From an uncultured Muribaculaceae bacterium (GTDB lineage: Bacteria; Pseudomonadota; Alphaproteobacteria; Rs-D84): a DNA stretch of 64,000 nucleotides. Where the stretch lies: NCBI GenBank assembly GCA_964576135.1, contig CAZNTZ010000001.1, forward strand, positions 5,792 to 69,791. Reading direction: 5' to 3'. Below, in pieces: positions 3,101 to 63,334 of the stretch (position 1 is the first letter of the stretch; each line of letters begins with the position of its first letter). The position numbers and the translations under genes are program-made. Below the pieces are notes generated by a model. It worked only from the letters and a program-made list of their open reading frames with translations, was not told the origin of the DNA and made no database searches.

Positions 3101-3847
3101 AGATGTCACACCGGCTGATGAGAAATTTTGACCGATACCAGGGTTGATAGTAATTGCATTATCACTGTTTGTAACAGTTCCACCAACAGTAATGCCAGCG
3201 CCGCCCGTCAAAGTAATTCCACCATTACCAGAATTTGAAACATTACCCAGGATATTTATTTCGTTTGTTGCAGTAAGAGTTGTCGGCACAGGATCTGGGT
3301 CACCAATCCCGGTTGGAAAATCATATGTAACGCTTAAATTATTTACGCGTATAAAATTACTTGAATTTATAACTGCTTGACCAGATGAAATTGTAATATC
3401 GCCAATTGTTACACCCGTTGCACCGGTAACAGAAAGCATTTCTGCAGAATCAACCAATGATATATTTGATGTTTCAATACTGTTTGTCGAAGCATTCAAA
3501 ACAATATCACCCAGATGCGAAGTTATTGGGTTACGAACATATATATTACCACCTGTTGCAGACAGACTTACCGATCCGCCAAAATTTTCAATTGTACCAA
3601 TAACATCAATATCGCCAGCAGTCGAAGTTAAATTTACTTCGAAAAGACTTTTAAAAGTATTATTGCTGACAGTCAAACCATCTGAAGTATTATTCCAGAT
3701 ATAATCAGTACTGATTCCAGTGTTAGACTGGCTGTAAACAGGCGAAGTTGGCGGTTCTGCAACATCAACATTTACTATCCCAGCAGCGCGCGCAGCGCCA
3801 CATAAAGGCAAAACTGTAACCAAAATTGGTAAAATCTTTTTAAACAT
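185..3847 (-). CDS. autotransporter (type Va) outer-membrane protein with large Gly/Thr/Asn/Ser-rich beta-helical passenger
   Basis: 1220-aa ORF. N-terminal signal peptide MFKKILPILVTVLPLCGAARAAG. Long passenger full of G/T/N/S-rich repeats. C-terminal ~300 aa have alternating hydrophobic beta-strand character and end in ...GGGYRF, the aromatic C-terminal residue typical of OM beta-barrels and autotransporter translocators. Confidence 0.75.
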   Translation of the reverse strand: MFKKILPILVTVLPLCGAARAAGIVNVDVAEPPTSPVYSQSNTGISTDYIWNNTSDGLTVSNNTFKSLFEVNLTSTAGDIDVIGTIENFGGSVSLSATGGNIYVRNPITSHLGDIVLNASTNSIETSNISLVDSAEMLSVTGATGVTIGDITISSGQAVINSSNFIRVNNLSVTYDFPTGIGDPDPVPTTLTATNEINILGNVSNSGNGGITLTGGAGITVGGTVTNSDNAITINPGIGQNFSSAGVTSNSGGRIVFGNGANFGFGAGGLSAAGDLFIGHTDVGTDGDVYFASSATLAASGARNITGGISIETGNSLQIGGPSSAKVASLTAAGLYLDGNFTGYVSGATTLVGGIDIGSATNSNNFYLETGTLTGVSGDIGSHLASYTLNVLNGGVSFTNIYNGSNVGAAIDNVNSDMSITATSITATSDVINVGNSMTFASSGNIVLSNDLLNGTLDGSTATAGAVGAVSNISSSTTLSVRNIVNFGDIIFSGTNSLNIYSILNNGNLFVSSALNTGTINISDIVWNTGNSALGALCTNGTNCDLFMNANQINIGNRLTNESGTGLVSANTGISVYQILNSGGDLVLRSPTINIGSGGIYQTGGTLELHTDNLNITGNGIISAGDTYIYSATGSGLINANIMGDVSGGVKFLGVGSMNITGDYYFNSTSQLLVGLSNSSHNSTIDISNGNISGGTAIVNVSGNLITNNTATAPGGTGLSDGSIGLYLTNIVDSGDAVYLLRATEIQDLQIGTRNLNVMFCNLDGSRCFNYLDAFRADQSLSASGAVPAYLSVKDVDGDGLNDSIYIVFDPRFGGPISIFKIQPIVGKEPTHTANEYASAGALDNLVEGVLIKNGFVNNTPIEAMPSAFLGSDFQQIGNEIYNRMEYYNSDNSKQTLYMARFAKMFEPIEAGAVAMQIDLDERMNYRQFENKLVDEFLLNRTRNLKKVWVDTNVSFFNDSEDINGNRLSVSAGMDWQHSKDTIMGVTARFAQLTSNADMNVDLSYANVMQYGAVRTEAKDTSFSLGAYLIRKLSQESSFYSNLNFYNHSIDVSRSQTFFKDTDGTTTAMSVSGEFGIMHDLLNKYIVGNAYLRGGYNSGFTLNLQDYMNAKQDGFISLTPGYSLAAQKRIYATPWLQLLPKITTGFEYNLLGAKKTIDYKFIDAVDFSKYDTGNGALWFNIGTGIDIISARGGQLGLDYRFQTNGNIQSHNIRLGGGYRF

Positions 3848-3944
3848 CTTTTCCCTGCAATCGCTGAATTATATCATAAAATTAGGTTGACTCCAAAGAG
3901 TAAAATTTGTTATCCCTATACATCGAAGAAACTAAGGAAGAAAA

Positions 3945-5171
3945 ATGTTTAATATAACAAAAGTACATGCGCGGCAAATAATGGACAGCCGCGGAAATCC
4001 AACAATTGAATGCGATATTATGTTATCTGGCGGCGCTTTTGGCCGTGCAGCGGTACCAAGTGGCGCAAGCACAGGTAGCCACGAAGCGCTTGAATTGCGC
4101 GATGGTGGCAAAGATTATATGGGCAAAGGTGTTTTAACAGCGGTAAAAAACGTAAATGAAATTATTGCACCTGTCGTTATTGGTATGGATGCAAGCAAAC
4201 AATTTGAAATTGATGAAAAAATGATTGAGATTGACGGCACCCCAAACAAAGCAAAGCTTGGTGCAAATGCGATTTTGGCTGTTTCAATGGCTGTTGCACA
4301 TGCTGCTGCAAAACAATCTGGCAAACCACTTTATAAATATATAGAAACAAAAAATGGATTGTCTTTACCACGTCCAATGATGAATATCATCAATGGTGGT
4401 GCACATGCAGATAACGGACTTGATGCACAGGAATTTATGATTATTCCACTGACAAATTCGGCGACAAAATCCGTAAAGATGGGCAGCGAAGTTTTTCATA
4501 ATCTGAAATCAATTTTGAAACAAGCCGGTCATTCAACCAATGTTGGTGACGAAGGTGGTTTTGCGCCAAACTTAAACACAACCCGCGAAGCACTTGATAC
4601 AATTATGTCTGCTATTGCCAAAGCTGGTTATGTTGCAGGAACAGATATCGCAATTGGAATGGATGTCGCAAGTTCTGAATTTTATCGTAACGGAATTTAC
4701 GAATTCGAAGGCAAAAAATTATCATCTGATGAAATGGTTGCTTTCTATGAAAAACTTATTTTGGATTATCCGATTATTTCAATCGAAGACGGACTGGCCG
4801 AAGATGATTGGGATGGATGGAAAAAATTAACATCATCAATTGGTGAAAAATGCCAATTAGTTGGCGATGATTTATTCGTAACAAATCCGACGAGATTGAA
4901 ACGTGGAATTGACGCCGGAATTGCAAATGCGATTTTAATCAAAGTAAATCAAATTGGTTCTTTGACAGAAACTTTTGCAGCGATTAAAATGGCACAAGAT
5001 GCAAAATATGGTGTTATCATATCGCACCGCAGTGGCGAAACCGAAGACACAACAATTGCCGATTTATCAGTTGCAACTGCTGCGGGTCAGATTAAAACAG
5101 GTTCAATGTCACGAACAGATCGTATGGCAAAATATAACCAATTGATCAGAATTGAAGAGGAAATCGCATAA
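3945..5171 (+). CDS. eno: enolase (phosphopyruvate hydratase)
   Basis: 408 aa. N-terminus [41 protein letters not shown], and full-length enolase-like conservation including ...[12 protein letters not shown]...SHRSGETED. Confidence 0.95.
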
Positions 5172-5175
5172 ATAA

Positions 5176-5382
5176 ATGCTTACACTCGATTTATTATTTT
5201 TGATTGTAAAATACGTATTTGCAATCGCGATTTTTATCGTATTGCTTGGCGCGCCGGCTTGGCTTGCGCGCCAAAATAAGAAAGATAAATTACAAATGGG
5301 AATCGTACGTGTTTCCAGTTGGTTATTCGGATGGACAGGTGTCGGTTGGATTTATGCACTGTATCTGGCTGTACGAAAATAA
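5176..5382 (+). CDS. small hydrophobic membrane protein, function unknown
   Basis: 68-aa ORF 4 nt after eno. Two predicted TM helices (LLFLIVKYVFAIAIFIVLLGA and WLFGWTGVGWIYALYLAV). No motif recognised. Confidence 0.4.
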   Translation: MLTLDLLFLIVKYVFAIAIFIVLLGAPAWLARQNKKDKLQMGIVRVSSWLFGWTGVGWIYALYLAVRK

Positions 5383-5460: not shown

Positions 5461-5919
5461 ATGGCAGGCAGTATAAATAAAGTTATACTTGTTGGAAATT
5501 TGGGTGGTGACCCACAAGTTCGTCAAATGCAAAACGGACAAAAAGTTGTCAGTTTTTCTCTTGCTACATCTGAATCATGGAAAGATAAATCTACTGGGGA
5601 AAGAAAAGAACAAACTGAATGGCACCGCGTTGTAATTTTTCAACCAAACCTGGTCGAAGTTGCTGAACGTATGTTACAAAAAGGATCCAAAGTTTATATC
5701 GAGGGTCAATTGCGTACACGTAAATGGCAAAACCAACAAGGTCTTGAAGTTTACACAACCGAAGTTATATTAAATGGCTTCACTGCTATCATGGTAATAC
5801 TCAGTGGTTCAAAAACATCTGATGGAATGGGCGGCGATTATTCATCTGCATCACATGCAAGCCAACCACCACGTGAAGAAATAAATGTTGCACAAATCGG
5901 TGATGATATACCGTTTTAA
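5461..5919 (+). CDS. ssb: single-stranded DNA-binding protein
   Basis: 152 aa. OB-fold N-terminus [21 protein letters not shown] ... TEWHRVVIF. Gly/Ser-rich tail ending in acidic DDIPF. RBS AAAGGATGA upstream. Confidence 0.9.
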
Positions 5920-20005: not shown

Positions 20006-20134
20006 CTTATTATTTCCCATATATTTAATTGACTGAATTATATCACAAAAATAAACCAAATAAAAATGAAATGCTTGGTAATAAACAGGTGTTTGATTCA
20101 AATAAAAAACCACCTTTCGGTGGTTTAATTTTTT

Positions 20135-27617: not shown

Positions 27618-30224
27618 TTATCTGGCCACAGATCTTTTTATACAGTTATGAATTTGATTAATCAGATTACGATTTGCATCAATGGATAAAGTATCCAATA
27701 TTTCTGATTCCTTGTAACCTGCATTAAACATCAGATTTACTATTCCTCCATTACCGTCTTCGTTAAATAACATATTGTTTCTGTTACCATCATGCCAACC
27801 TGCACGTAATAATTCAGAAACCCTTAATCTGCGATCACGTAAAATATTATCCGAAACTTCGTTTGTTTTATAAACAACTGTCATTGCTTTTCTGGATTTC
27901 ATTTTTGCAATTTCTTCAATTTCCAGATTATATTTTTCACGCCAATCAATATGATAAATAACATTTGTCATATGCAGCAATTTTTGTTCAATTTTTTTAT
28001 TTTCAATATTTCTGAATGCACCTGGGGTTCTGGTTTTTGCCGCAGGATGAGATAATTTTAAATCTATGGTACCTTTGTATATATATCTTAGTTGTTGTGA
28101 ATCAAAAGTTCTGGTGACCAGACCCAACTTTCTGCCGATATACTGAAACAGCCATCTGTACTCCCCAGGATTGTTTGGCGTATCACCAACAGTTATATTC
28201 ATATGCACAGATTTATTTCCTGAAAATACAACACGATTTACCATGCCCAGATATACTAATTTTTTAGCCAAAACTGTTTGTTCCGCAAGTGACATTGTAT
28301 CGCTTTCGAATACAATATTTTTCATCTGGAAATTGTCATTGCATAATGAAATCATTCCATTTGGTCTGAATATTGTCGGTTTTTCAACCAATGAATTTAT
28401 TGTTTGGAAAATACCGTCTTTATCAAGACGCCAATCATCGCGCGGTTTTCCATTTTTATCGTTATATTGAACAACCGAAACCGAATGTCCGAATTTAACA
28501 TCTGTTAATTTTGTTTCCGGGCATATTTGAAAATCCGCCATTGGAACATTATCAAGGTTTATAATTTCACTGCTTGCTTGGATCTGTTTAATCGGTTTAA
28601 TTTCATACTGAACTGTCTGTGCAAATTTATTATTTTGTTCTTTTTTATCTGGAACTTCTTTTAATTTAACTGGTGGACGTGGATAATTAAACAAACCAAT
28701 ATCAAAACCGTATATCACCATATTTTCTTGTTTGATTTCTTGTTCCAATTTACGTATTTCGGCCATAGTTTCATTTGTCGGATTTGCTTTGTGCTGTTCC
28801 ATAAGTACCGCTAATTTATCTTCGCGACCGCGTCTGTAATTTAAACATGCTTTTTCATCAGATCCAAATAAATCAACTGATATGAAAGAATCCAAAACAC
28901 CTGGGTCGGCGTGAATTTTCCGCCCAGTTTTTCTATCAACAGATTTTGGACCGCGACCAAATTCAATTATTTTTATTGCCTTATAATTATCGCAATGTGA
29001 TTTTTCACAAAACATTTGCACATTTGAAAAATCAAAATCTGTTCCACGCGTTTGTAATTTTAATTTGTCTAAACCAATTCTGATTGTTAAAAAATATTCC
29101 AGCGCCAACAATTCTAAATCATTAAAATTCATACATTCCGCGGGTCTGCTGCAATGACTTTTCATAGATTCAGGGGTGCTGATAGTATATTTATTTTCGT
29201 TACCACGACCGATATGTTCATGAACCCATGATTTTAATTTTTCTTGATTCTGTTGGTCATAAACTAGTTCACAAAATTCGTTCATATATTTTATTAAAAC
29301 AAACATAATATGTGGCGCAATAAAAGACCCTGGAACCTTGGGCGCGATTTTATTTCCACAAATCCATTTGTTTTCAAAAAATTTATAACCTATCTGACGC
29401 AAAGCTTGTTCATAAGCGCGTTGAAATCCAAAAACACTTTTATAATCATCATTATATATTTTCACATTTGCAAATAACGTATCAAATATAAATTTATCAC
29501 GAAATGCGTGTGCGTCACGATAATCAGCATTTCTGCCTTTTAAACCTTTGACTATGTTGTCCAATTTTGTTTTTACAGTTTCAAATTTACTTTTTAATTT
29601 ATCACCACGAATCCATGCCCAAGTAATATCAATCAATTCATCTATATCTGTTTTTGGAAAGGCAAAATAATATCGCGCAAAAGCAATCGCGACTTCAGAT
29701 TCAAAATTCTTTTTTGATTTGTCCGCATCAATTTTATTAGACACTGAAATATCATCACGGAAAGATTCAGATTTATGCAATAATTCTTTGGTTACCAAAT
29801 AAAGCGCATATCGTGACAAATAAATATAATCGTTCGGAAATAATTGACCTGGGACAGGTTCTTTCTTTAATTGAAAATGACCTTCGGGAATTTTATATTG
29901 ACGAATAATTTTTGTCAGTGCTGATTTGGTATCAAGCTTGTCTGAATTTGGAACAAGTGTTTGAACAACTGTATCAAATCGCCATGCATCTTGATGCTCG
30001 ATAGTCTTTTTGCATTTTTCTAATTTTTGAAAAATTGATTGAAATAAAGGTTTTAATAATTCTGGGTTGGCATATGCAAAAAATCTGTATGGTAAATCAA
30101 ATTCTATACTTTCAAATTCTGGCGCAGACGAAAGCTCTGGATTTCCGAAAACATCCAATCTTTGTTTTGTCAGTTTTTCAATTTTATCCGGCGTATTCTG
30201 CGACATGACGGATATTGTATACAA
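27618..30224 (-). CDS. large (868 aa) cytoplasmic orphan protein. C-terminal third carries weak AEP primase-polymerase-like motifs (IVFESD; VVFSGNKSVHMNI)
   Basis: Long uninterrupted ORF. No signal peptide or TM. No family recognised over the first ~600 aa. Residues ~640-700 resemble AEP motif I (hhhExD) and motif II (SGxxxxH, as in PriS/LigD-Pol SGxKGxH). Confidence 0.55.
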   Translation of the reverse strand: MYTISVMSQNTPDKIEKLTKQRLDVFGNPELSSAPEFESIEFDLPYRFFAYANPELLKPLFQSIFQKLEKCKKTIEHQDAWRFDTVVQTLVPNSDKLDTKSALTKIIRQYKIPEGHFQLKKEPVPGQLFPNDYIYLSRYALYLVTKELLHKSESFRDDISVSNKIDADKSKKNFESEVAIAFARYYFAFPKTDIDELIDITWAWIRGDKLKSKFETVKTKLDNIVKGLKGRNADYRDAHAFRDKFIFDTLFANVKIYNDDYKSVFGFQRAYEQALRQIGYKFFENKWICGNKIAPKVPGSFIAPHIMFVLIKYMNEFCELVYDQQNQEKLKSWVHEHIGRGNENKYTISTPESMKSHCSRPAECMNFNDLELLALEYFLTIRIGLDKLKLQTRGTDFDFSNVQMFCEKSHCDNYKAIKIIEFGRGPKSVDRKTGRKIHADPGVLDSFISVDLFGSDEKACLNYRRGREDKLAVLMEQHKANPTNETMAEIRKLEQEIKQENMVIYGFDIGLFNYPRPPVKLKEVPDKKEQNNKFAQTVQYEIKPIKQIQASSEIINLDNVPMADFQICPETKLTDVKFGHSVSVVQYNDKNGKPRDDWRLDKDGIFQTINSLVEKPTIFRPNGMISLCNDNFQMKNIVFESDTMSLAEQTVLAKKLVYLGMVNRVVFSGNKSVHMNITVGDTPNNPGEYRWLFQYIGRKLGLVTRTFDSQQLRYIYKGTIDLKLSHPAAKTRTPGAFRNIENKKIEQKLLHMTNVIYHIDWREKYNLEIEEIAKMKSRKAMTVVYKTNEVSDNILRDRRLRVSELLRAGWHDGNRNNMLFNEDGNGGIVNLMFNAGYKESEILDTLSIDANRNLINQIHNCIKRSVAR

Positions 30225-36919: not shown

Positions 36920-37735
36920 ATGAACACTCATTTTCACAGAAATCTTAACAGAATGGCCTTGTTTACGGTGTTGATCGTAGCGGGGCTGGTAATGTGGCAC
37001 GTAAATATTTTACAAATGGCACTGAATAACATATGGTTAAACGGCGCTATTTTAGGAACAACTATTTTTGGAATTGGTTTGTGTTTTGCAAATATTTTTC
37101 AATTGGTTCCAGAATATTCATGGATGCGTCGATTTTTTTCGGACAAATCAAAGTCCATAGATTTACCGCCACGCATTTTACGCCCTGTGGCAATAATGTT
37201 GAACACAGCAAAATTTCAAAAGAAAAAATATATTTCATCACAGACATTAAATAATTTTCTTGAAATTATTATTGGTCGTTTTGAAGATCAACGCGAGTCT
37301 ATCAGATATATTACAAATGTTTTGATTTTTATGGGACTGCTTGGCACGTTTTGGGGACTGATACATACTGTTGGTGGTTTTGCAGATTTAGTTCATGGTT
37401 TAGATTTTGCAGATGAAAATATTATGACAACGGTTCAAAAGGGACTTGCCGTGCCACTTTCTGGAATGGCTGTTGCATTTACAAGTTCATTATTTGGTTT
37501 GGCTGGTTCATTGATTGTTGGATTTTTGGGTTTGCAAGTACAACTTGCCCAAAATGCAATGTTCCGTGAACTTGAAGAGCAATTATCCGATCGTGCAAAA
37601 TTATTTGGATATTTAGAAATCGGTGCACGCGGCGAAGAAACCGCACTACCTTATGTCAATGCAGCCGCAAAAGAATTGACCAAAGCAATAGAAAAGCTTG
37701 ATAAAACCGTAAGCAAAATGACGGCAAAAAGTTAA
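36920..37735 (+). CDS. MotA/TolQ/ExbB-family proton-channel subunit (stator A-like)
   Basis: 271 aa. 4 predicted TM helices with a ~70-aa cytoplasmic loop between TM2 and TM3. TM3 MGLLGTFWGLIHTVGGF and TM4 VPLSGMAVAFTSSLFGLAGSLIVGFLGL match the MotA/ExbB/TolQ signature. Confidence 0.7.
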   Translation: MNTHFHRNLNRMALFTVLIVAGLVMWHVNILQMALNNIWLNGAILGTTIFGIGLCFANIFQLVPEYSWMRRFFSDKSKSIDLPPRILRPVAIMLNTAKFQKKKYISSQTLNNFLEIIIGRFEDQRESIRYITNVLIFMGLLGTFWGLIHTVGGFADLVHGLDFADENIMTTVQKGLAVPLSGMAVAFTSSLFGLAGSLIVGFLGLQVQLAQNAMFRELEEQLSDRAKLFGYLEIGARGEETALPYVNAAAKELTKAIEKLDKTVSKMTAKS

Positions 37736-37755
37736 ATCTTTTTGGGAGAGAGCAA

Positions 37756-38946
37756 ATGATAAAATTTCGTGAACGCACAAATACATGGCCTGGATTCGTA
37801 GATTTGTTTTCAAATCTGGTCATTGTTTTGATTTTTTTATTGATTGTTTTTGTGTTTCTTTGGACAACTACAAGTATATTTAATTCCAAAACTGGCGCCA
37901 AAAAAATGGCTGAATTAACAAGAATAAATGCAGAACAAAGCGAACAAATTGTTCAAATGACTGCGGATGAACAAGAAGCTAAGCGTCTCTTGATTCTTGC
38001 CCATGCAGAATTGGAACATCTTGAATCAACCAAGGCAAGTCTTGAAGATGAAGTCAATAATCTTGATTCTTCGGTAAAAAATAAAGATGCAAAAATCGAA
38101 GATCTTGTTCTTTCTTATGAAGACAAAGTTAAACAAATTCAATTATCAAGCGAGAATATGCGGGCCATGATTCAATCTTTGAATGCCCAATTGAGTTCTT
38201 TGAATGATCAACTTAATGCTACTCAGTCTCAAAGTATTGCGGCACAGTCACAAACCGAGGCGGAAAAAGCGGAACTTGCCAATCAAAGAAATAATTTAGA
38301 ACAACAACTTGTTACGTTGAACCAACAACTTGCAGATATGAATGCCGCATTGCAAGCAGCAGAAGTAAAGTCTCAGCAACAAGAAGTTAATTATGTAGAA
38401 ATGTCAACCCGTCTGAATCGTGCATTAGCTGACAAAGCAGCCGAAGCAGCAATGTACGCAAACGAAGCAGCAAAATATGCCGAAATGTCAAAATATCAGT
38501 CAGAATTTTTCAAAGCAATTAAATTAGCTTTTGCAAATGATCCTAATATCGACACCAGCAGTGACAGATTCCTAATTCCAAGTGATATATTATTTGCATC
38601 TGGATCTTTTGATTTATCACCCGAAGGAAAAAAACAACTTAATGTAATTGCAAACGTGATAAAGAATATGGAAAACGTTATTCCACAAAATGTTGCTTGG
38701 ATAATACGTGTTGATGGACATACAGATACAAAACCGGTTGTTCCAGGAAATCGTGCATATAAAAATAACACTGAATTGTCACTGTTGCGCGCACGTGCTG
38801 TGGCACGCGAACTGGGTGAAAAAGGTGTAAATCGTAAACGATTGGTTCCTAGCGGCTTTGGCGAATTACATCCAGCAATCCAAGGTGAAAGCCCAACTGC
38901 ATTGCAAAAGAATCGCAGAATAGAACTGCGTTTGACAAATCCGTAA
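37756..38946 (+). CDS. MotB/OmpA-family stator B-like subunit with ~250-aa Q-rich coiled-coil linker
   Basis: N-terminal TM with conserved Asp (WPGFVDLFSNLVIVLIFLLIVFVF, compare MotB YADLMTLL). Long heptad-rich linker. C-terminal OmpA/MotB peptidoglycan-binding domain (...VDGHTDTKPV...NTELSLLRARAVARELGEKG...NRRIELRL). Confidence 0.7.
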   Translation: MIKFRERTNTWPGFVDLFSNLVIVLIFLLIVFVFLWTTTSIFNSKTGAKKMAELTRINAEQSEQIVQMTADEQEAKRLLILAHAELEHLESTKASLEDEVNNLDSSVKNKDAKIEDLVLSYEDKVKQIQLSSENMRAMIQSLNAQLSSLNDQLNATQSQSIAAQSQTEAEKAELANQRNNLEQQLVTLNQQLADMNAALQAAEVKSQQQEVNYVEMSTRLNRALADKAAEAAMYANEAAKYAEMSKYQSEFFKAIKLAFANDPNIDTSSDRFLIPSDILFASGSFDLSPEGKKQLNVIANVIKNMENVIPQNVAWIIRVDGHTDTKPVVPGNRAYKNNTELSLLRARAVARELGEKGVNRKRLVPSGFGELHPAIQGESPTALQKNRRIELRLTNP

Positions 38947-42945: not shown

Positions 42946-43019
42946 TGGGGCATAATTTAACGGTAGAATACCGGACTCTGACTCCGTTCATGTTGGTTCG
43001 AATCCAGCTGCCCCAACCA
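42946..43019 (+). tRNA. tRNA-Gln (anticodon CUG)
   Basis: TGGGGCATAATTTAACGGTAGAATACCGGACTCTGACTCCGTTCATGTTGGTTCGAATCCAGCTGCCCCAACCA. U1:A72 acceptor pair characteristic of tRNA-Gln. Loop CTCTGAC. Close overall match to E. coli tRNA-Gln. Confidence 0.85.
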
Positions 43020-43022
43020 ATT
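43002..43022 (+). repeat. direct repeat copy 1 (last 18 nt of tRNA-Gln plus 3 nt): ATCCAGCTGCCCCAACCAATT
   Basis: Identical 21-mer recurs at 43181-43201. Confidence 0.9.
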
Positions 43023-43055
43023 ATTTGAACCCTTGTGGTTCGAATAATTGGTTTT
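43017..43055 (+). terminator. 15-bp stem-loop terminator overlapping the tRNA-Gln 3' end
   Basis: CCAATTATTTGAACC-cttgt-GGTTCGAATAATTGG followed by ttttgag (one G:U pair). Confidence 0.65.
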
Positions 43056-43180: not shown

Positions 43181-43201
43181 ATCCAGCTGCCCCAACCAAT
43201 T
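43181..43201 (+). repeat. direct repeat copy 2 of the tRNA-Gln 3' end (att-like)
   Basis: ATCCAGCTGCCCCAACCAATT, exact match to 43002-43022. Preceded by a ~100-bp GC/purine-rich tract atypical of this AT-rich genome. Confidence 0.9.
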
Positions 43202-43507
43202 TTTATTTGATAATTTTTCTAATTTCATAGCAAAATAACTAATAATGAACTGGAAAATAATATTTAAATCTTTGTTTATATGGCTGTGGATGATTCCAAT
43301 TGCTTTTATAAACGGAACACGAGCGCAGAAAGAATTATTATAAAAATAATACGCAAAAATTTTTCATAATTTAAAATTTTCATCGAAATACTCTATAATA
43401 ATTTATGTTAAATTTACCTCAAAATATTATATTAATAAACACGCAAAAGAAACTTTTCAATTTATATTACACCGTTATACAGATGTTTATTTGAAGTTAA
43501 GTTAAAC

Positions 43508-43536: not shown

Positions 43537-43565
43537 CTATAAATCAATGAACAAATGGGGTGACA

Positions 43566-44336
43566 ATGTTCAAAAAACTGAAATTAAAATTAGCAGCTTT
43601 AAAATTACAGATAGCCACTAAAAAGGCCGAAAAAGAAGCACGTCGTGCCAAAGCACGCGCAAAGAAATCTACCAAAACCGATTCGAAAAATAAATCGGCA
43701 GTCGGTCGCGTATTAAGTTACATTATTAGAATACCTTCTAAAACTTGGAATTGGATTTCTACACGCAATACAATCGGTTTAATAAATTTGGCTTTGCTTG
43801 CTGGAATTATTGTTTTATTTTCAATTTTAATTATCGATTTATACGATGCCAACCAAATCAAAAATGGTAAAAATGGTTCTGCATTATTCCGTGGGGCATC
43901 TGCAGATGAAACATCAATGACTACAGAACAACGTCGCGTTATTGTTCGCACATCCGTTTCTGTTGGTAAACAACGTACAATTAATACTGTAAGTTTGCCT
44001 CTGGAAAAACCGGCAACTGTTTCAACATATGTTTATGAGAAAGTTGTTGTTCCAACCCGTAATTTATCTGGTGACATTATTATTGATGGCGAAGATATAG
44101 CAAGCCTGCGTCTTATGCCTGGGGACAATATTTCTGGAAATTTGATTGTACAAAATGTTCGTCGTTTCAAATTACCACACGATATTAAGATAAACGGAAA
44201 TTTAATTTTACGTAATGCTGGGATTGTTAAATTCTGTGGACCGTTTACGATTACCGGTAATATTTACGTAAGTCGTAATTCATCTTTTGGTCCAATCCCC
44301 CGCGAAGCACACCTTGGTGGTCAGGTACTGTTCTAA
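43566..44336 (+). CDS. hypothetical bitopic membrane protein: Lys-rich cytoplasmic N-terminus, one TM, beta-rich C-terminal domain with GN(L/I)-type repeats
   Basis: MFKKLKLKLAALKLQIATKKAEKEARRAKARAKK..., TM IGLINLALLAGIIVLFSILIIDLY. C-terminal NISGNLIVQNV...KINGNLILRNAGIVKFCGPFTITGNIYVS. ORF track starts at GTG 43560. Confidence 0.5.
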   Translation: MFKKLKLKLAALKLQIATKKAEKEARRAKARAKKSTKTDSKNKSAVGRVLSYIIRIPSKTWNWISTRNTIGLINLALLAGIIVLFSILIIDLYDANQIKNGKNGSALFRGASADETSMTTEQRRVIVRTSVSVGKQRTINTVSLPLEKPATVSTYVYEKVVVPTRNLSGDIIIDGEDIASLRLMPGDNISGNLIVQNVRRFKLPHDIKINGNLILRNAGIVKFCGPFTITGNIYVSRNSSFGPIPREAHLGGQVLF

Positions 44337-44357
44337 AAATAAAAAGTATATTTAAAA

Positions 44358-44382
44358 ACGGCCACATGGCCGTTTTTTTTTA
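44358..44382. terminator. bidirectional rho-independent terminator between convergent genes
   Basis: aaaaACGGCCAcatgTGGCCGTttttttttt. Confidence 0.7.
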
Positions 44383-44387
44383 ATAAC

Positions 44388-45383
44388 TCATACAACTTCG
44401 GTAACTGCACGCAAAGATCCATCGCGTGAAAGTTGAACAACATGTAATTTCTTTTTCATTTCGGCAATCAATTCTGAACGTTCATATGCTGGTTGGGTAT
44501 GCAAAATTCTGTCAGAAAAAGCCTCGTACGCAGCCTCTGCACTTTCAGCATGAATAGTTGTATAAAAATGATCGTGACCAGTGCCCATCATTTCCCACAA
44601 AACACTGGCGTTATCGGTTGAAACTTCACCACCTATGATAACGTCTGGTGTCATACGAACAATTAAATCAAGAAGTCGCGCATAATTAAAATTGTTATTT
44701 TGTTCTGTACGTGACAACACAAAATGCACACGATTCTTTTGTGGAACTTTGATTTCACGCGCGTCTTCGATTGTTATTACACGCGCATTTTGATCAATCA
44801 ATGTTAGAATATGATTCAAGAACAAAGTCTTTCCAGTGCTGGTTGCACCAGATATTAATATAGGACTGCCATCATTTATTGCTGTCATTAAACGATCATA
44901 CGGATCATCTGGCTTTTTCTTGGAGCGTTGTTTTATACTTAATAATTTTTGACCACGTTTAAGGTGGTAATTTTCAAAAGTTATATCTGGTGCCGCACCG
45001 CCGCGAATATTTAATGCTATGCCACCCGTCAGATCACGATCATCATACATAACATTAGGACCCGCAATCGCACTGAAACGATGATTGCCAGGCAGAGTAG
45101 CATAAACAACTGGCATTCCACGAATTGGGTCAAAAGGTCTTTCGTAAACATTAGCAACACAATGAATCAAATCCATCAAATATTGTTTCGATAATTTTTC
45201 GGAATTATACGCAACCCAAGGCTTTGCAGGACCATGTAAACGCATCCATACTTCGCCCGCATGGTTTATAGCAATCTCTTCCACGAATGAAGGTGTAAAA
45301 AATTCTTCCAATGGTTTGATTAAAGTGTCTAATACTATATCGCTCATGTAACATATTTTATCAGAAATTCTGTATTGAATCAA
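44388..45383 (-). CDS. VirB11/TrbB-family type IV secretion/conjugation ATPase (stand-alone)
   Basis: 331 aa. Walker A ISGATSTGKT. ...VITIEDAREI... (VirB11 IEDxxEL-like). ...RMTPDVIIGGEVSTDNA... (VirB11 RxRPDRIIVGExR-like). Confidence 0.7.
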   Translation of the reverse strand: MIQYRISDKICYMSDIVLDTLIKPLEEFFTPSFVEEIAINHAGEVWMRLHGPAKPWVAYNSEKLSKQYLMDLIHCVANVYERPFDPIRGMPVVYATLPGNHRFSAIAGPNVMYDDRDLTGGIALNIRGGAAPDITFENYHLKRGQKLLSIKQRSKKKPDDPYDRLMTAINDGSPILISGATSTGKTLFLNHILTLIDQNARVITIEDAREIKVPQKNRVHFVLSRTEQNNNFNYARLLDLIVRMTPDVIIGGEVSTDNASVLWEMMGTGHDHFYTTIHAESAEAAYEAFSDRILHTQPAYERSELIAEMKKKLHVVQLSRDGSLRAVTEVV

Positions 45384-45425
45384 CGCGCTAAATCTGTTAG
45401 AATTCAGAAAACGAGAGATTTTAAT

Positions 45426-46001
45426 ATGAAAAAATTATATTTACTCTTTGCAATTTTGGCTTTGCCAATCGCAGGATGTGTTGATAATACAACAAATCAA
45501 CAACCGGACACTCCTTATAATACACAGGATTATGCCCAGGGTGGATTTGAAGCGCCCTTGATGAACGAGCGCACATCAAATTTTATGCAACCTGAAAATG
45601 AATACGCAGGCGTGGATTCTTATAAACCACATACCGAAATTGAAAAAGCAGAATTGAATAATAAATGGAATACTTCCAAAGTTGTTACACGGTGGCAAGA
45701 ATACAAAGGAACAATGGTTCGTGTTCAGATTTTACTCGGGGATACAGATTTGCGCGAAATGCGTTTACGTCTGATGCAAAATGCAAATGGCACTGATATT
45801 GATGGTGATTCACGTACAGTATTGTCAAAGGTTGCAGATTTTGAAATGAAGAAAGTTTGCGGCCGTAACGCAGATTCTTTCGTTATTGTTTATGACAAAC
45901 CTTCGTTTGAAACTATGCGTCCAACACCGTATTTCGATTATCGTGTTGAATCCCAAGGTGCAACTATGCGTACTTATGGATTTCGCTGTATTTATAAATA
46001 A
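45426..46001 (+). CDS. hypothetical lipoprotein
   Basis: Lipobox MKKLYLLFAILALPIAGC (internal ATG 45426; ORF track starts 45375). No motif recognised. Confidence 0.5.
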   Translation: MKKLYLLFAILALPIAGCVDNTTNQQPDTPYNTQDYAQGGFEAPLMNERTSNFMQPENEYAGVDSYKPHTEIEKAELNNKWNTSKVVTRWQEYKGTMVRVQILLGDTDLREMRLRLMQNANGTDIDGDSRTVLSKVADFEMKKVCGRNADSFVIVYDKPSFETMRPTPYFDYRVESQGATMRTYGFRCIYK

Positions 46002-46340: not shown

Positions 46341-46360
46341 AACATCAGATAAAAAATAAA

Positions 46361-46384
46361 AACGGGTTTTACCCGTTTTTTTTA
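46361..46384. terminator. bidirectional rho-independent terminator between FKBP and recombinase genes
   Basis: aaaaAACGGGTtttACCCGTTttttttt. Confidence 0.7.
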
Positions 46385-58568: not shown

Positions 58569-61130
58569 TTACATTGCTATGTCTTCGCATTTTTCAACTG
58601 GATCAGATGATGTACAGTTGGTTTTGCGACTGTCCCACAATCCAAATAGTCCGCGACTGCCACTGGTCTTGCAATCTTGTTTTACAGTCGATTTACATAA
58701 ATGACAGTTTCTGGCGTCACGGTTAAATATCGCCCAAGTTTCAGTTGTTACACCACCGGCAGTTACTTTGAATTTATAACCTTCTTGTTTAAGTCCACCC
58801 ATTTGGCTTTGTCCATGACCACCGGTCATTAATTGATCAGTTGTCAGTCCTGCACCAACGTCATATGAAATCGCGTACGGCGGTGTCAGCGGGGTTGATA
58901 ATGGATCTGGCGCATCACCAGATGTAGTGGTAGTTGCGCCACTTGATTCTGCCATTTTCTGACACATGTATTGTGCTAAATCTGCTGACGCACCCTTGGT
59001 TGCATCTGAAATTGCCTTATTAACCTTTTTATTATAATTTTCATTTGCCTGACGTAATGCAGCAATTGCAATTTGCATTTTAACACTGTTCAAAAGGTTT
59101 GGAAAACGTGCACTTGTCTTTTCGGATTTACCAGTGACTTGTTCCAAACTGCGTCCACTGATGCAATATTGAATTTTTGGATCTTGTTCAATCATTTGGG
59201 TTACACGATTGATTGTTCCAGCAATATTGTTTAACTCTTCTTCAACAGATGTGATTATACCGGCGGCATTTGCCACAGATGTATTTTCTCTGCGAACCTT
59301 TGCAATATATTCTTCAACCCCAAGTTGTCCAGGCGCAAGAATCGTAGTGGTACCATCTTCGGCAACGTCTTTGGTTTTTCCAGAGGCATCACCCATTTTG
59401 ATTGAACCAAAAGAAATCATTCCAGTAACGCGATAAATTGTTCCATCTTTCTGGGACTTTATTGAACTTGTACCAATTGTATCATCGCTGGCAAATTTAT
59501 TACAATCTGTCGTTGAACCACAAACTTCTTCCATTTTTGTGCTGACCAGGTTCTGGCAATTTTCAAGTGCAGAATTATCAATATTCAAATACAGACCCAT
59601 CAACATTGAATCCAAATCATCCATAGCAAACTGTGGGTTATTTTGTTTGCAGACAACCAATTTATCAATTGGGCAAATATCATGAATATATTTATAATCC
59701 ATACCGACACATTTTTCGAAATTTGAACCGCAACGATCATCAGATGTAAAACAATCTTTGACTTCTTGGGTGCAACGATCGACACGCATAGATTTTAATT
59801 TATCTGTGACATAACCCCAAATCAAAGGCTCCATACGTTCGCAAGCGTCAATTTGAACTTTACAAAAGCTGCGCGCCATTTCTGGACGTGATAAACACGA
59901 ATCCATTGTTGCTACACCTTTGCCTTCGATATCATCTTTACATGCAGTTTGTATACATGCAGAAATATCAGTCAAACATGATTGACGACGTTTTGATTCA
60001 TTATTAAGTTCAGCAATTTTCAAATCTGGTGCAACTTCTCGGATAAAATCTGACCAAACATTATCACGCACAGCAACGCATTGATCTAAAACTTTTTCAC
60101 AAATATTACGTTTTGAATCTAAAGATTCCATTGTTGAATCTGCTATTTCAAACTTTGCAACTGTCTGAATATTTGAACCAGCAGTGCTGACAGTTTTAGA
60201 TTGCATATTTTCATATGCAACTTCGCCAACACATTTTGACCAATCAGATCCGCAAACATCGGTACCATTCATACATTTTCTGAATTCCAACATACATTGT
60301 CCGCGATCAAATTTATTTGATGATTCAAACGAAGTAAGTCTTGCATCGCGAATACTTTTTTGTGCATTAGCAAAAACCGTATTCACAGATTCCTGCATTT
60401 TTGCAATAGTATTTCCAAATGCACGACAATCGTTTCTGACCTGTGTCGTGTAAAGCTGGGTTAACAGATTTGCATCAGAATTGCATGAATCAGGCATACG
60501 CGAAATACATAAATCACGCGCCCCAACTTGCAAAGCATCACCTGTTTTAGTGCTGAGATTTTGTTCATTTTCAGTAAAAATATCTTCAGATTCATCGGGA
60601 GAAGATGTATTCCACATAGAAAGCAAATTTGCTTTTTTATTTTTTGCTTCGGTATCTTCCAGAGAAATAACGTTTCCCGAAGAATCATAACTGCGCTCTC
60701 CACCGAAAACAATATCTGCCTTGGCACCGGCTTGGATTTTTTCGACTTCTACTGTGCTTAATGTTTGTGCATTGGCTAACTTTGAATTCATTTCAGAAAT
60801 CTGTTTTTTATAACCAACACCTTCGTCAGAACATGCGCATGTACCACCATCCAAAGTTACTGGACCGTCTGGAATATTCAATACAGTACTGTCGCCTGCG
60901 CAAAATTGATCCATACAACCAAAGTAAGAATTATAACAATCTTGGGAATAAATATTCGATGCTTCTACCTTGGCACGAACACCGGTCGCATTTCCAACAA
61001 CACTAACTGTCTTTGCACCACCAGTTCTGGCCGCAATGGTTGCCGCAGAAACTGATAATGGCACAATACAAGACACAGACAATGCCAATATCCAAATATT
61101 TAATTTTGCTTTTATCATTAATCTCTCCAC
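58569..61130 (-). CDS. giant secreted cysteine-rich protein, paralog A (853 aa), unknown family
   Basis: Signal peptide MERLMIKAKLNIWILALSVSCIVPLSVSA. More than 40 Cys. Shares conserved blocks with the upstream paralog (CMDQFC, CACSD, GAKA(D/N)(I/L)VFG, VLDQC(V/M)AVRD, RNCH(L/I)C, C-terminal CED(I/V)xM). Confidence 0.6.
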   Translation of the reverse strand: MERLMIKAKLNIWILALSVSCIVPLSVSAATIAARTGGAKTVSVVGNATGVRAKVEASNIYSQDCYNSYFGCMDQFCAGDSTVLNIPDGPVTLDGGTCACSDEGVGYKKQISEMNSKLANAQTLSTVEVEKIQAGAKADIVFGGERSYDSSGNVISLEDTEAKNKKANLLSMWNTSSPDESEDIFTENEQNLSTKTGDALQVGARDLCISRMPDSCNSDANLLTQLYTTQVRNDCRAFGNTIAKMQESVNTVFANAQKSIRDARLTSFESSNKFDRGQCMLEFRKCMNGTDVCGSDWSKCVGEVAYENMQSKTVSTAGSNIQTVAKFEIADSTMESLDSKRNICEKVLDQCVAVRDNVWSDFIREVAPDLKIAELNNESKRRQSCLTDISACIQTACKDDIEGKGVATMDSCLSRPEMARSFCKVQIDACERMEPLIWGYVTDKLKSMRVDRCTQEVKDCFTSDDRCGSNFEKCVGMDYKYIHDICPIDKLVVCKQNNPQFAMDDLDSMLMGLYLNIDNSALENCQNLVSTKMEEVCGSTTDCNKFASDDTIGTSSIKSQKDGTIYRVTGMISFGSIKMGDASGKTKDVAEDGTTTILAPGQLGVEEYIAKVRRENTSVANAAGIITSVEEELNNIAGTINRVTQMIEQDPKIQYCISGRSLEQVTGKSEKTSARFPNLLNSVKMQIAIAALRQANENYNKKVNKAISDATKGASADLAQYMCQKMAESSGATTTTSGDAPDPLSTPLTPPYAISYDVGAGLTTDQLMTGGHGQSQMGGLKQEGYKFKVTAGGVTTETWAIFNRDARNCHLCKSTVKQDCKTSGSRGLFGLWDSRKTNCTSSDPVEKCEDIAM

Positions 61131-61150: not shown

Positions 61151-63334
61151 TTACATATTCACATCTTCGCAAGATTCTATTTCTTGACAGAAAGTTTGCT
61201 TACCACCTGTGAATAATCCACCAATTGCGCCTGCAACACCGCCGATCAGACTGCCCCAACCTGGCAAAGCAGCTGTACCCATCGCTGCACCACCGGCTGC
61301 CATTTTTGCGGCAGATGCTGCTTTTGATTCGCCACCTTGTTCACAAACTTTTTGAACACGACAAATATGACAATTACGAAGCGATGGTTCAAATGAAACA
61401 GATGTTACCCAAACGCCCGGATTGTTTCCACCGCGATCACCTTTGTTTGAATCTTTTTCTGACGCAAATAAATCATCACAAGCAGCACGTGCTGATTCTA
61501 CATCTTCTTGTTTTGCAAGCTCTGCTTTGCGCGACACATATGCACGTTCGGCACGTTTTTCAGCATTAAATTTTGCCAATGTTTTCGCAGTATTAAATAT
61601 ACTTACACCCAATTTATTTCTGCCAGATGGCTTATTTGTATCACTGCATGCAGCAACCGTTTGGTCTTTTTCAAACTGAACAAAAAATTCATCAACTGCG
61701 GCATCTGCATTTGTGCGCCAATCAACCTTGTCTGTTGATTTTTTCATTGCAGCAATTTGACCGTCTGCCGGCAAACATGCCATATCTGTACCACAAACAC
61801 GACCCAAAGCTTCTGCAAAATGATTAACACAACCAACCATCATTTGGTAATTCATCTGGAGCAATGCTGCAGAAACAATAACATCAAATTGATTTTGTCC
61901 ACGGCAAGATGGAAACATATTTTGTGGGCACATTGCAATAATGTCTTTAGAGCTTTTACCAACACATTCAGCTTTGTCGTAATTTACACCACATTTATCT
62001 TGTAAACATTTATCCACATCGTTCTGGCAGAATTGAATTCTTAAAAACCCAAGTCTGTCACCAACAGAATTTTTAATTCCTGGAACCATTGATTCACACT
62101 CTTCAATCACAGGACAAATTCCTGACGCAATATTAACATTATCAAGACATTGTGAATTTGTGTCCGTTGAACATGAATTTTCTAAACAATCTTGTATACG
62201 TGCAAAGCAAGTTCCACGACGATTCTGATCTGCGAATTTTGCAGCATTTTCTAAAACCAGTTTCGATTCGTCTTGCCAATCTTTCTTAACATAGTCGCGC
62301 ACAGCCATACATTGATCCAAAACATTATCACACGCATTGCCGCGTCTTGCCAATAAATCAGTATCAAGGCAATTTTCAAAATTCGCGCCACAACCACCTT
62401 TATCTGCAACACAAGATTTATAAGCGATCAAACATTCACCACGATTATATTTATTAGTAGTATCAAGCATCGCAAGACGTGCTTCACGCACAGCTTTTTC
62501 TGCGGCTGTCTTATTATCGCTTGCTATTTTTTTCTGATCATCAAGGAATGTGCTGAAAGTTTTGCAATCGCTTGTAACCTCACGACTATAAAGTAATTCT
62601 TCCATATTAGCGTCAGATCCACATGCTGTCAGACGATCTTTACATGATTCCGCAGCCATATTATAAAGGTTTGTACCAATATACATATCCGAATCGAGAC
62701 TTTCTCCATTATCAGAACTGCCGCCGCCAACCCAATCAGCCAAACTCATTCCGGTGACTTTGGATTGTGCCTTGGCTTTATCACTTGTTCCAAAAACTAA
62801 ATTTGCTTTGGCCCCAAGTTTTTCACGTTCAACACCTTCGGTATAAAGTTTATCAGCAGATGATTGAATATCGCTGATTTCTTTAATTCTTGATTTTGAT
62901 TGAATAATATTGTCAGAACAAGCGCAACGGGCACCTTCGGAATCATCAAGCAAACAAAATTGATCCATACAACTGCGATAAGCATCGCGGCAACCCCCAC
63001 CCGTTGTTGTACCAGATTGTGTTGTTTGTGTATTTATTGTTGTTCCTGTCGCAGTGGACACAGATGCAATTACCCCAGGCTGTGCAGTTGTCGTTGTTAC
63101 AGAACCTTCGACAGTACCATCAGGCAAAGTACATTTTCCCGCAACCACAACTGAATTAGAATTTTTGCATGCAGGCGCAGATGGAACACCGCCAGCGGCA
63201 CGGGTTGATGCCTGCGAAATTCGAAGCCCTACACGACTTGAATCAATTGCGTCAGCGCGACTTGCCGCATTTGCAGAAGATATATAAAACAAACTGACCA
63301 GCGTAAATAACGCCGCAAAGAATTTCTTTGTCAT
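61151..63334 (-). CDS. giant secreted cysteine-rich protein, paralog B (727 aa), unknown family
   Basis: Signal peptide MTKKFFAALFTLVSLFYISSANA. Thr-rich linker. More than 40 Cys. C-terminal Gly/Ala-rich hydrophobic stretch then CQEIESCEDVNM. 20-nt gap to paralog A, so probably co-transcribed. Confidence 0.6.
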   Translation of the reverse strand: MTKKFFAALFTLVSLFYISSANAASRADAIDSSRVGLRISQASTRAAGGVPSAPACKNSNSVVVAGKCTLPDGTVEGSVTTTTAQPGVIASVSTATGTTINTQTTQSGTTTGGGCRDAYRSCMDQFCLLDDSEGARCACSDNIIQSKSRIKEISDIQSSADKLYTEGVEREKLGAKANLVFGTSDKAKAQSKVTGMSLADWVGGGSSDNGESLDSDMYIGTNLYNMAAESCKDRLTACGSDANMEELLYSREVTSDCKTFSTFLDDQKKIASDNKTAAEKAVREARLAMLDTTNKYNRGECLIAYKSCVADKGGCGANFENCLDTDLLARRGNACDNVLDQCMAVRDYVKKDWQDESKLVLENAAKFADQNRRGTCFARIQDCLENSCSTDTNSQCLDNVNIASGICPVIEECESMVPGIKNSVGDRLGFLRIQFCQNDVDKCLQDKCGVNYDKAECVGKSSKDIIAMCPQNMFPSCRGQNQFDVIVSAALLQMNYQMMVGCVNHFAEALGRVCGTDMACLPADGQIAAMKKSTDKVDWRTNADAAVDEFFVQFEKDQTVAACSDTNKPSGRNKLGVSIFNTAKTLAKFNAEKRAERAYVSRKAELAKQEDVESARAACDDLFASEKDSNKGDRGGNNPGVWVTSVSFEPSLRNCHICRVQKVCEQGGESKAASAAKMAAGGAAMGTAALPGWGSLIGGVAGAIGGLFTGGKQTFCQEIESCEDVNM

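Follow-up and report, generated by a model that had tools for sequence, protein, structure and literature searches.

What does a secretion ATPase do on a bacterial chromosome when the genes that would complete its secretion system are not found around it? This question is raised by a stretch of DNA of 64,000 nucleotides (positions 5,792 to 69,791 of the forward strand of contig CAZNTZ010000001.1, GenBank assembly GCA_964576135.1), called the window below, in which an open reading frame (ORF) of 331 codons on the minus strand (44388–45383) carries the motifs of a VirB11-type ATPase. The window is chromosomal, has a GC content of about 37% and comes from Candidatus Enterousia, order Rs-D84. Its genes include those for enolase, SSB, pyruvate:ferredoxin oxidoreductase, TyrS, EF-Ts, S2, MurJ, Era, QueA, Tgt, LysS, GroES/EL, FtsH, TilS, GAPDH, MiaA and PriA, together with six tRNAs. 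A preliminary description of the sequence had proposed that the ATPase gene might be an orphan remnant of a conjugative element, a part of a scattered type IV secretion system (T4SS) or an ATPase recruited, together with its neighbours, to an unrelated envelope machine. The family to which the protein belongs is already known, and public pipelines already name its orthologues VirB11 or TadA-like. What stands out here is the conserved stand-alone context of the gene, which is unusual for the known family.

A divergent but intact VirB11 ATPase

Among the NCBIfam models, the ATPase finds its best match in VirB11 (TIGR02788), with 146.6 bits over model positions 6–306 of 308, and a second VirB11 model gives 119 bits. 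TrbB (TIGR02782) scores lower than VirB11, at 88.9 bits against a cut-off of 304.55, and the models for FlaI (71.7 bits), TadA (70), PilT (38.9) and GspE (about 30) match the C-terminal domain only; the curated cut-off is reached for none of these models. In Pfam the protein matches T2SSE with 77 bits. Alignments to PDB sequences span both domains in the case of HP0525/Cag-alpha (query residues 15–275), the VirB11-like protein 6bge and the Brucella VirB11 (query residues 10–287), whereas for the sequences of FlaI, CpaF and PilT the alignment begins no earlier than about residue 154 and covers only the RecA-like half. The VirB11-type N-terminal domain, the feature that separates VirB11 from PilT, GspE and CpaF in these alignments, is present. 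Because VirB11 is the best and a full-length match and the rival models cover the RecA-like half only, the protein is taken to be a divergent VirB11 and not an ATPase of a Tad, pilus or type II secretion system. The classification among VirB11, TrbB, CpaF/TadA and PilT, which the preliminary description had proposed as a check, thus puts VirB11 first and over its full length, at a score below the cut-off.

It is very improbable that the protein is really an ATPase of the Tad/CpaF, type IV pilus, type II secretion or archaellum type. Some orthologues are indeed labelled TadA ('Flp pilus assembly complex ATPase component TadA') or 'T2SS/T4P/T4SS family' by NCBI, and in phmmer comparisons with the PDB the E-values of FlaI and CpaF resemble that of HP0525, but they concern the RecA-like domain only. 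Besides the NCBIfam ranking, this assignment is opposed by the location of the nearest relatives of the ATPase, which lie after virB10 in virB-type operons, and by the gene content of the window, where neither Pfam nor NCBIfam detects tad, pil or gsp families. The trb genes are likewise undetected in the window by these two collections. In addition, a published survey describes Rs-D84 as lacking flagella and reports type IV pili for another lineage only.

The counts of loci, the identities and the synteny given in this work refer to 82 related loci, and the motif alignment to 83 orthologues. Walker A (SGATSTGKT), the Asp box (ITIEDAREI), Walker B (RMTPDVIIGGE) and the His box (GTGHDHFYTTIHAES) are invariant in all 83, so the hallmark motifs first noticed in the ORF are real, and the idea of a pseudogene devoid of a conserved Walker B or His box finds no support, both motifs being intact. 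The protein is an intact VirB11-class traffic ATPase composed of an N-terminal VirB11-type domain and a RecA-like domain, and it is presumably catalytically competent.

The 331-codon ORF is present as first described, but the protein that it encodes is probably shorter. Its true start is almost certainly the ATG at 45347, giving 319 residues, and three sequence features lead to this choice. About half of the orthologues among the matches listed in the protein database are annotated with 319 residues; the TTG at 45383, with which the maximal ORF begins, is the -35 hexamer of the gene's own promoter; and the distance between this TTG and the ATG shifts by single bases among species in an alignment of the intergenic regions, because of which the N-terminal extension of the longer ORF is considered non-coding.

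Conservation in Candidatus Enterousia

Enterousia is a named genus of gut Alphaproteobacteria in the order Rs-D84, with genomes of about 0.75–1.0 Mb (below about 1 Mb for most members). These bacteria have been reported to be without respiration, most of biosynthesis, flagella and the usual importers that bring in sugars, amino acids and peptides, and they are thought to depend on partner cells. Literature searches found no description of secretion systems in Enterousia/Rs-D84.

A scan covering one genome per species detected relatives of the ATPase in 156 species genomes. The best 80 of these 156 are all metagenome-assembled genomes (MAGs) labelled Candidatus Enterousia, Alphaproteobacteria or 'Rickettsiales bacterium', and they were sampled from the rumen, faeces or the guts of termites. 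Every one of the 82 loci has an intact gene, whose product is 79.6–87.1% identical (median 81.8%) to the protein of the window. The neighbouring genes are less conserved (GAPDH 71.1%, FtsH 70.7%, LOG 70.1%, PriA 65.0%, MiaA 60.7% and TilS 48.6%), although high conservation by itself is nothing unusual among hexameric secretion ATPases and should not be given too much weight. At least 98% invariance is observed at 202 of the 319 positions, all the catalytic motifs included. By these sequence comparisons, the ATPase gene is a strongly constrained core gene of Candidatus Enterousia/Rs-D84.

Descent from a T4SS gene adjacent to virB10

The nearest relatives outside the lineage are 38–60% identical to the ATPase, and their virB11 genes directly follow virB10 in T4SS clusters. 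In a plasmid collection, the three best matches (38–41% identity, E-values of 5e-69 to 4e-57) are set well apart from the canonical VirB11 proteins (about 30%, about 1e-28). Among these relatives are the proteins of Microvirga sp. VF16 pMVF16-3 (WP_203447100.1) and Sphingosinicella p1 (WP_165356654.1), which are 38–41% identical over their full length. Both are encoded by the penultimate gene of a complete but divergent virB2-B3-B4-like...B8-B9-B10-B11-D4 cluster with relaxase or replication genes nearby; such partners are not detectable near the Enterousia ATPase. The P-type (MPF-T) proteins, exemplified by Agrobacterium VirB11, Brucella suis VirB11 (2gza) and HP0525/Cag-alpha (1g6o), share the two-domain architecture, align end to end and have the same Walker A, Asp box, Walker B and His box. 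The Enterousia ATPase, however, is only about 30% identical to the canonical plasmid VirB11, lies outside a virB operon and is predicted to be monocistronic with a promoter of its own.

A search through all of 1.84 billion cluster representatives gave only 73 clusters at E ≤ 1e-30, the best of them 53% identical to the ATPase. The closest proteins outside Enterousia (53–60% identity) belong to a sister lineage known from human-gut and rumen metagenomes (VirB11 P0241; loci L087, L090, L092 and L094–L122), whose contigs have a GC content of 31–50% and carry the genes on the chromosome, among housekeeping genes. In this lineage, virB11 always stands directly after a giant TrbI/VirB10 gene of 1315 codons with Bflower domains (more than 30 loci). 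The virB10 gene is in turn preceded by genes for repeat proteins of 870–1950 residues, and contig L092 also has CagX/VirB9 further upstream. The cluster adjoins engB-yidC-rnpA-rpmH and dnaN-dnaA, and the 6-kb flanks of these loci show no homologues of the lipoproteins that accompany the ATPase in Enterousia. A soil relative with 45% identity is likewise encoded downstream of TrbI. As the virB11 genes of the outside relatives directly follow virB10, the stand-alone arrangement is derived, and the Enterousia gene descends from a terminal T4SS ATPase gene adjacent to virB10.

Two observations on these relatives can be recorded here. The large proteins of the sister-lineage T4SS cluster (L090, 1–11442; L092, 1–12382; L095–L122) are full of DGNxxGY-type repeats, and literature searches found no description of this cluster. 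The soil relative is found on a forest-soil contig (L089, 40–3444), where TrbI/VirB10 and VirB11 are followed by a secretin-family gene, an unusual combination.

A conserved unit with two lipoprotein genes

The lipoprotein gene described earlier as divergent from the ATPase gene is confirmed on the plus strand, and it is directly followed in 79 loci by a second lipoprotein gene, encoding an FKBP-type peptidyl-prolyl isomerase (PPIase). Among the 80 loci long enough to show it, 79 have the genes in the order FKBP lipoprotein, orphan lipoprotein, ATPase, whereas the outer neighbours vary, with many different gene clusters on either side (LpxI, XerC/D, YidC and SSB, among others, are found upstream; PriA, the convergent membrane protein of 258 residues and YebC, among others, downstream). 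None of the downstream small ORFs is conserved throughout the lineage, the largest family occurring in 26 loci. The synteny comparison suggested by the preliminary description therefore gives a divided answer: the lipoprotein pair is kept beside the ATPase, but the convergent membrane protein on the other side is found in only 6 of the 82 loci.

The orphan lipoprotein has no relatives in Pfam, NCBIfam or the PDB sequences by profile search. A database of 5.8 billion proteins contains 474 homologues, with 63–100% identity in the 120 listed, and those of the 120 for which a source is named belong to MAGs of alphaproteobacteria or of Rickettsiales/Enterousia. A copy identical to the lipoprotein of the window was located only on a contig of 1.3 kb. 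A structure model built from 30 sequences was unusable, with a predicted local distance difference test (pLDDT) score of 52.8, and one built from 120 sequences reached a pLDDT of 68 with a confident core. The predicted structure suggests an alpha/beta protein, and no informative fold match was obtained for it. The second protein matches FKBP_C of Pfam with 70 bits and resembles the PPIase domain of trigger factor (TIGR00115, residues 145–233). Like the Mip-type lipid-anchored isomerases of host-associated bacteria, to which we presume a resemblance, it is a lipoprotein with an FKBP-type PPIase domain. It differs from Mip in being minimal (107 residues), nearest to the trigger factor domain and devoid of the Mip dimerisation helix.

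The spacer of about 77 bp between the ATPase and the orphan lipoprotein genes is conserved at the DNA level in an alignment of 76 intergenic sequences. Two divergent sigma-70-type promoters, with overlapping -35 boxes, are predicted there (Table 1), and the lipoprotein ATG at 45426 is preceded by a Shine-Dalgarno-like GAGAG element. The ATG of the ATPase gene lies 7 nt past the -10 box (45345–45360), a spacing kept within 1–3 nt in related loci, and a leaderless or near-leaderless mRNA is therefore predicted. As for the 3' ends, the hairpin at 44354–44377 is predicted to act as an intrinsic terminator for the plus strand alone, but since it is symmetric, with an A run 5' of the stem that reads as a T run on the minus strand, it may end the ATPase transcript too. 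Consensus and conservation, on which these promoter and terminator assignments are based, suggest that the ATPase gene is monocistronic, with its own conserved promoter back to back with that of a two-gene lipoprotein operon.

Table 1. Positions of the ATPase gene, its neighbours and the predicted transcription signals in the window
Feature	Position	Strand	Remarks
VirB11-class secretion ATPase gene	44388–45347	-	319 aa; maximal ORF up to 45383; TIGR02788 best match, full-length
Orphan lipoprotein, 191 aa	45426–46001	+	Lipobox IAGC; two invariant Cys in the mature part; divergent from the ATPase gene
FKBP-type PPIase lipoprotein, 107 aa	46017–46340	+	Lipobox LAAC; second gene of the operon
ATPase promoter, sigma-70-type	45355–45383	-	TTGATT, 17 nt, TG-extended TAAAAT; from scan and alignment; predicted
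Lipoprotein-operon promoter, sigma-70-type	45375–45403	+	TTGAAT, 17 nt, TG-extended TAGAAT; predicted
Hairpin between the convergent ATPase and membrane-protein genes	44354–44377		10-bp stem AAAAACGGCC/GGCCGTTTTT, then T run (+)
Bidirectional intrinsic terminator	46358–46380		Called on both strands; ends the lipoprotein operon and serves the convergent XerC/D-type gene
Bitopic membrane protein, leucine-rich-repeat-like C-terminal repeats	43560/43566–44336	+	Lineage-specific neighbour, outside the conserved unit

Two further observations concern the surroundings of the trio in other genomes. In one Enterousia species (L073, 6827–9331), LspA, the lipoprotein signal peptidase, and YidC adjoin the two lipoprotein genes. 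T7-like phage genes (capsid, head-tail connector, terminase) occur close to the trio in several Enterousia genomes, within 5–8 kb of it (L001/L002, about 1600–5200; L084, 15097–17391).

Possible roles of the stand-alone ATPase

The explanation that we favour, and that we consider probable, is that of a functional VirB11 motor of T4SS ancestry serving a T4SS-type or T4SS-derived machine whose other parts are encoded elsewhere or have diverged beyond recognition. That the ATPase still has such a role is somewhat the likelier case because we know of no established example of a VirB11 protein that works independently of a T4SS, and because the scattering of virB genes has a precedent in the Rickettsiales, where it is established for the T4SS. 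According to this explanation, virB11 was uncoupled from virB10 in Enterousia and would now be transcribed on its own, under joint regulation with two periplasmic lipoproteins. The ATPase would assemble into a hexameric ring, as is typical of VirB11, on the cytoplasmic side of the inner membrane, and ATP hydrolysis would drive either the assembly of a T4SS-type or T4SS-derived envelope machine or the passage of substrates through it. The remaining parts of the machine may be encoded at other sites of the genome, as happens with the scattered rvh system of the Rickettsiales, or may be too diverged for recognition, and the two co-expressed lipoproteins could be accessory or assembly factors in the periplasm.

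A number of results weigh against this explanation. The score of the ATPase, 146.6 bits, is lower than the TIGR02788 cut-off of 249.95. Families of VirB4, B6, B8, B9, B10, D4 and relaxases are found by Pfam and NCBIfam in no other sizeable ORF of the window, and when 34 T4SS proteins of Microvirga, Sphingosinicella and the sister group served as queries in tblastn and phmmer, they matched the ATPase alone in 1.49 Mb of sequence (the window plus 84 related Enterousia loci with flanks of up to 10 kb), so that the absence of such genes nearby, already remarked on in the preliminary description, is confirmed. When the C-terminal fragment of the sister VirB10 was compared with the database of 5.8 billion proteins, the 36 matches were all on short contigs of the sister type, and none of them shows the abundance or the long-contig signature of the Enterousia proteins; in the same database, the ATPase query has 1597 matches, other VirB11 families included. 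A scan of JGI metagenomes for VirB10 motifs gave 28 loci, again all of the sister type. Both VirB10 searches need exact short words or motifs, because of which a diverged VirB10 could be missed, and VirB4 was not covered genome-wide. The predicted structure of the orphan lipoprotein (pLDDT 68) has none of the VirB7, VirB9, pilotin or secretin folds about which the preliminary description had asked. Taken as a whole, the negative results for T4SS partners in Enterousia are suggestive, not conclusive. As regards the engB/yidC region, the site of the T4SS in the sister group, the corresponding Enterousia neighbourhoods (L042, L073) contain housekeeping genes only. A protein of 868 residues encoded in the window (27618–30224, minus strand), without an evident N-terminal signal peptide and without family match, was considered as a hidden VirB4 and rejected, as it has no P-loop.

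The scattered T4SS of the rvh type, put forward in the preliminary description, is plausible from the descent of the gene. In the Rickettsiales and in Enterousia alike, a reduced-genome, host- or partner-dependent alphaproteobacterium carries a virB-type gene on its chromosome outside a complete operon, and the closest outside relatives of the Enterousia gene are T4SS-linked. The rvh virB11, however, stays inside a virB8-B9-B10-B11-D4 cluster, whereas the Enterousia virB11 is alone, and no other rvh-type gene, nor any second T4SS gene, has so far been found in the 1.49 Mb or by the VirB10 searches.

The main alternative, which we regard as unlikely, though it deserves attention, is exaptation, in which the T4SS channel was lost and VirB11 was kept for another, possibly essential, task in the envelope or membrane, working with the two co-regulated lipoproteins and an inner-membrane partner. 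The negative outcome of all the searches just described agrees with it, as do the move of the gene away from virB10, its neighbour in all outgroups, the shared conserved promoter region and lipoprotein pair that have remained beside it, and the conservation of the ATPase above that of the neighbouring housekeeping genes. The earlier idea of an ATPase recruited together with its neighbours is half borne out: the lipoprotein named there, and a second one not included there, are kept with it, but the membrane protein is lineage-specific. On the other hand, a VirB11 function of this kind would have no established precedent known to us, and since the lipoproteins reside in the periplasm and the ATPase in the cytoplasm, a membrane partner would still be required. 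Moreover, the unique sequence inspected amounts to about 10–15% of a genome's worth, the VirB10 searches hinge on exact words or motifs, and adjacency alone is no proof of a functional link. In its most definite form, namely that the channel was discarded and VirB11 kept as an indispensable stand-alone ATPase, co-regulated with both lipoproteins through a bidirectional promoter, the proposal seems to us more doubtful still.

The third reading, in which the gene would be left over, as a decaying orphan, from a conjugative or integrative element that had inserted at tRNA-Gln, is so improbable that it can be rejected. What recommended it was a duplication of the tRNA-Gln 3' end 179 bp downstream, a tyrosine-recombinase gene 1 kb from the ATPase and a lower GC content (0.32) across 42–44 kb of the window. 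The repeat that had been described as att-like does exist (43002–43025 and 43181–43204, 96% identical), but the stretch between its copies measures only about 155 bp, and the ATPase lies outside it. The recombinase is of the XerC/D type, and in relatives it shows synteny with LOG, TilS and FtsH. The window yielded neither a relaxase nor any other gene for transfer, and the position of the ATPase relative to tRNA-Gln is not kept in relatives, whereas its pairing with the lipoproteins is. The distribution of the gene is not patchy: it has matches in 156 species genomes, and it lies in a housekeeping context, with 80–87% identity to the window and invariant catalytic motifs in the 82 loci. The reading is also rejected because the nearest outside relatives are T4SS-cluster genes located directly after virB10.

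Other genes of the window

Downstream of the ATPase gene, the convergent bitopic membrane protein of the preliminary description is present. Its homologues, limited to the closest relatives, are 36–42% identical, and it has no family match in Pfam or NCBIfam. The repeats had been described as beta-helix-like; they look leucine-rich-repeat-like instead, on a weak PDB match to a protein of that kind (E 0.0013). The two copies of the tRNA-Gln (CTG) repeat are separated by an oddly GC-rich filler of about 120 bp, an arrangement that resembles the scar of a lost integrated element.

Several genes located further away also merit mention. A Fic/DOC-domain protein of 246 residues is encoded at 11639–12379 (plus strand); in some alphaproteobacteria, Fic proteins serve as T4SS effectors, and elsewhere they form toxin modules. 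At 36920–38946 (plus strand), a MotA/ExbB-type channel protein is followed by a protein of 396 residues in which a long coiled coil is combined with an OmpA domain at the C-terminus, a pair that looks stator-like in an organism reported to be without flagella. An outer-membrane protein of 488 residues (18647–20113, minus strand) matches the Pom family (Protochlamydia outer membrane protein). Finally, three secreted proteins of 1220, 853 and 727 residues (185–3847, 58569–61130 and 61151–63334, all on the minus strand) have signal peptides and no match in Pfam or NCBIfam; the last two are adjacent, and the N-terminal region of the 853-residue protein looks cysteine-rich.

Significance

Rs-D84/Enterousia are widespread uncultured gut bacteria, and the route by which metabolites are supplied to them by their partners is a standing question. 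A secretion-type motor that outranks the adjacent glycolytic and protease genes in conservation offers a concrete handle on metabolite acquisition. If the channel was discarded and the motor kept, the ATPase would represent a VirB11-dependent function of the envelope that has not been described before, in a gut bacterium that depends on partners and has a minimal genome, and, should the rest of the T4SS not be encoded, it would be the first clear example of a VirB11 ATPase retained for a role outside the T4SS. Alternatively, if the rest of the T4SS is encoded elsewhere in the genome, a contact-dependent transfer machine would be a core trait of this lineage.

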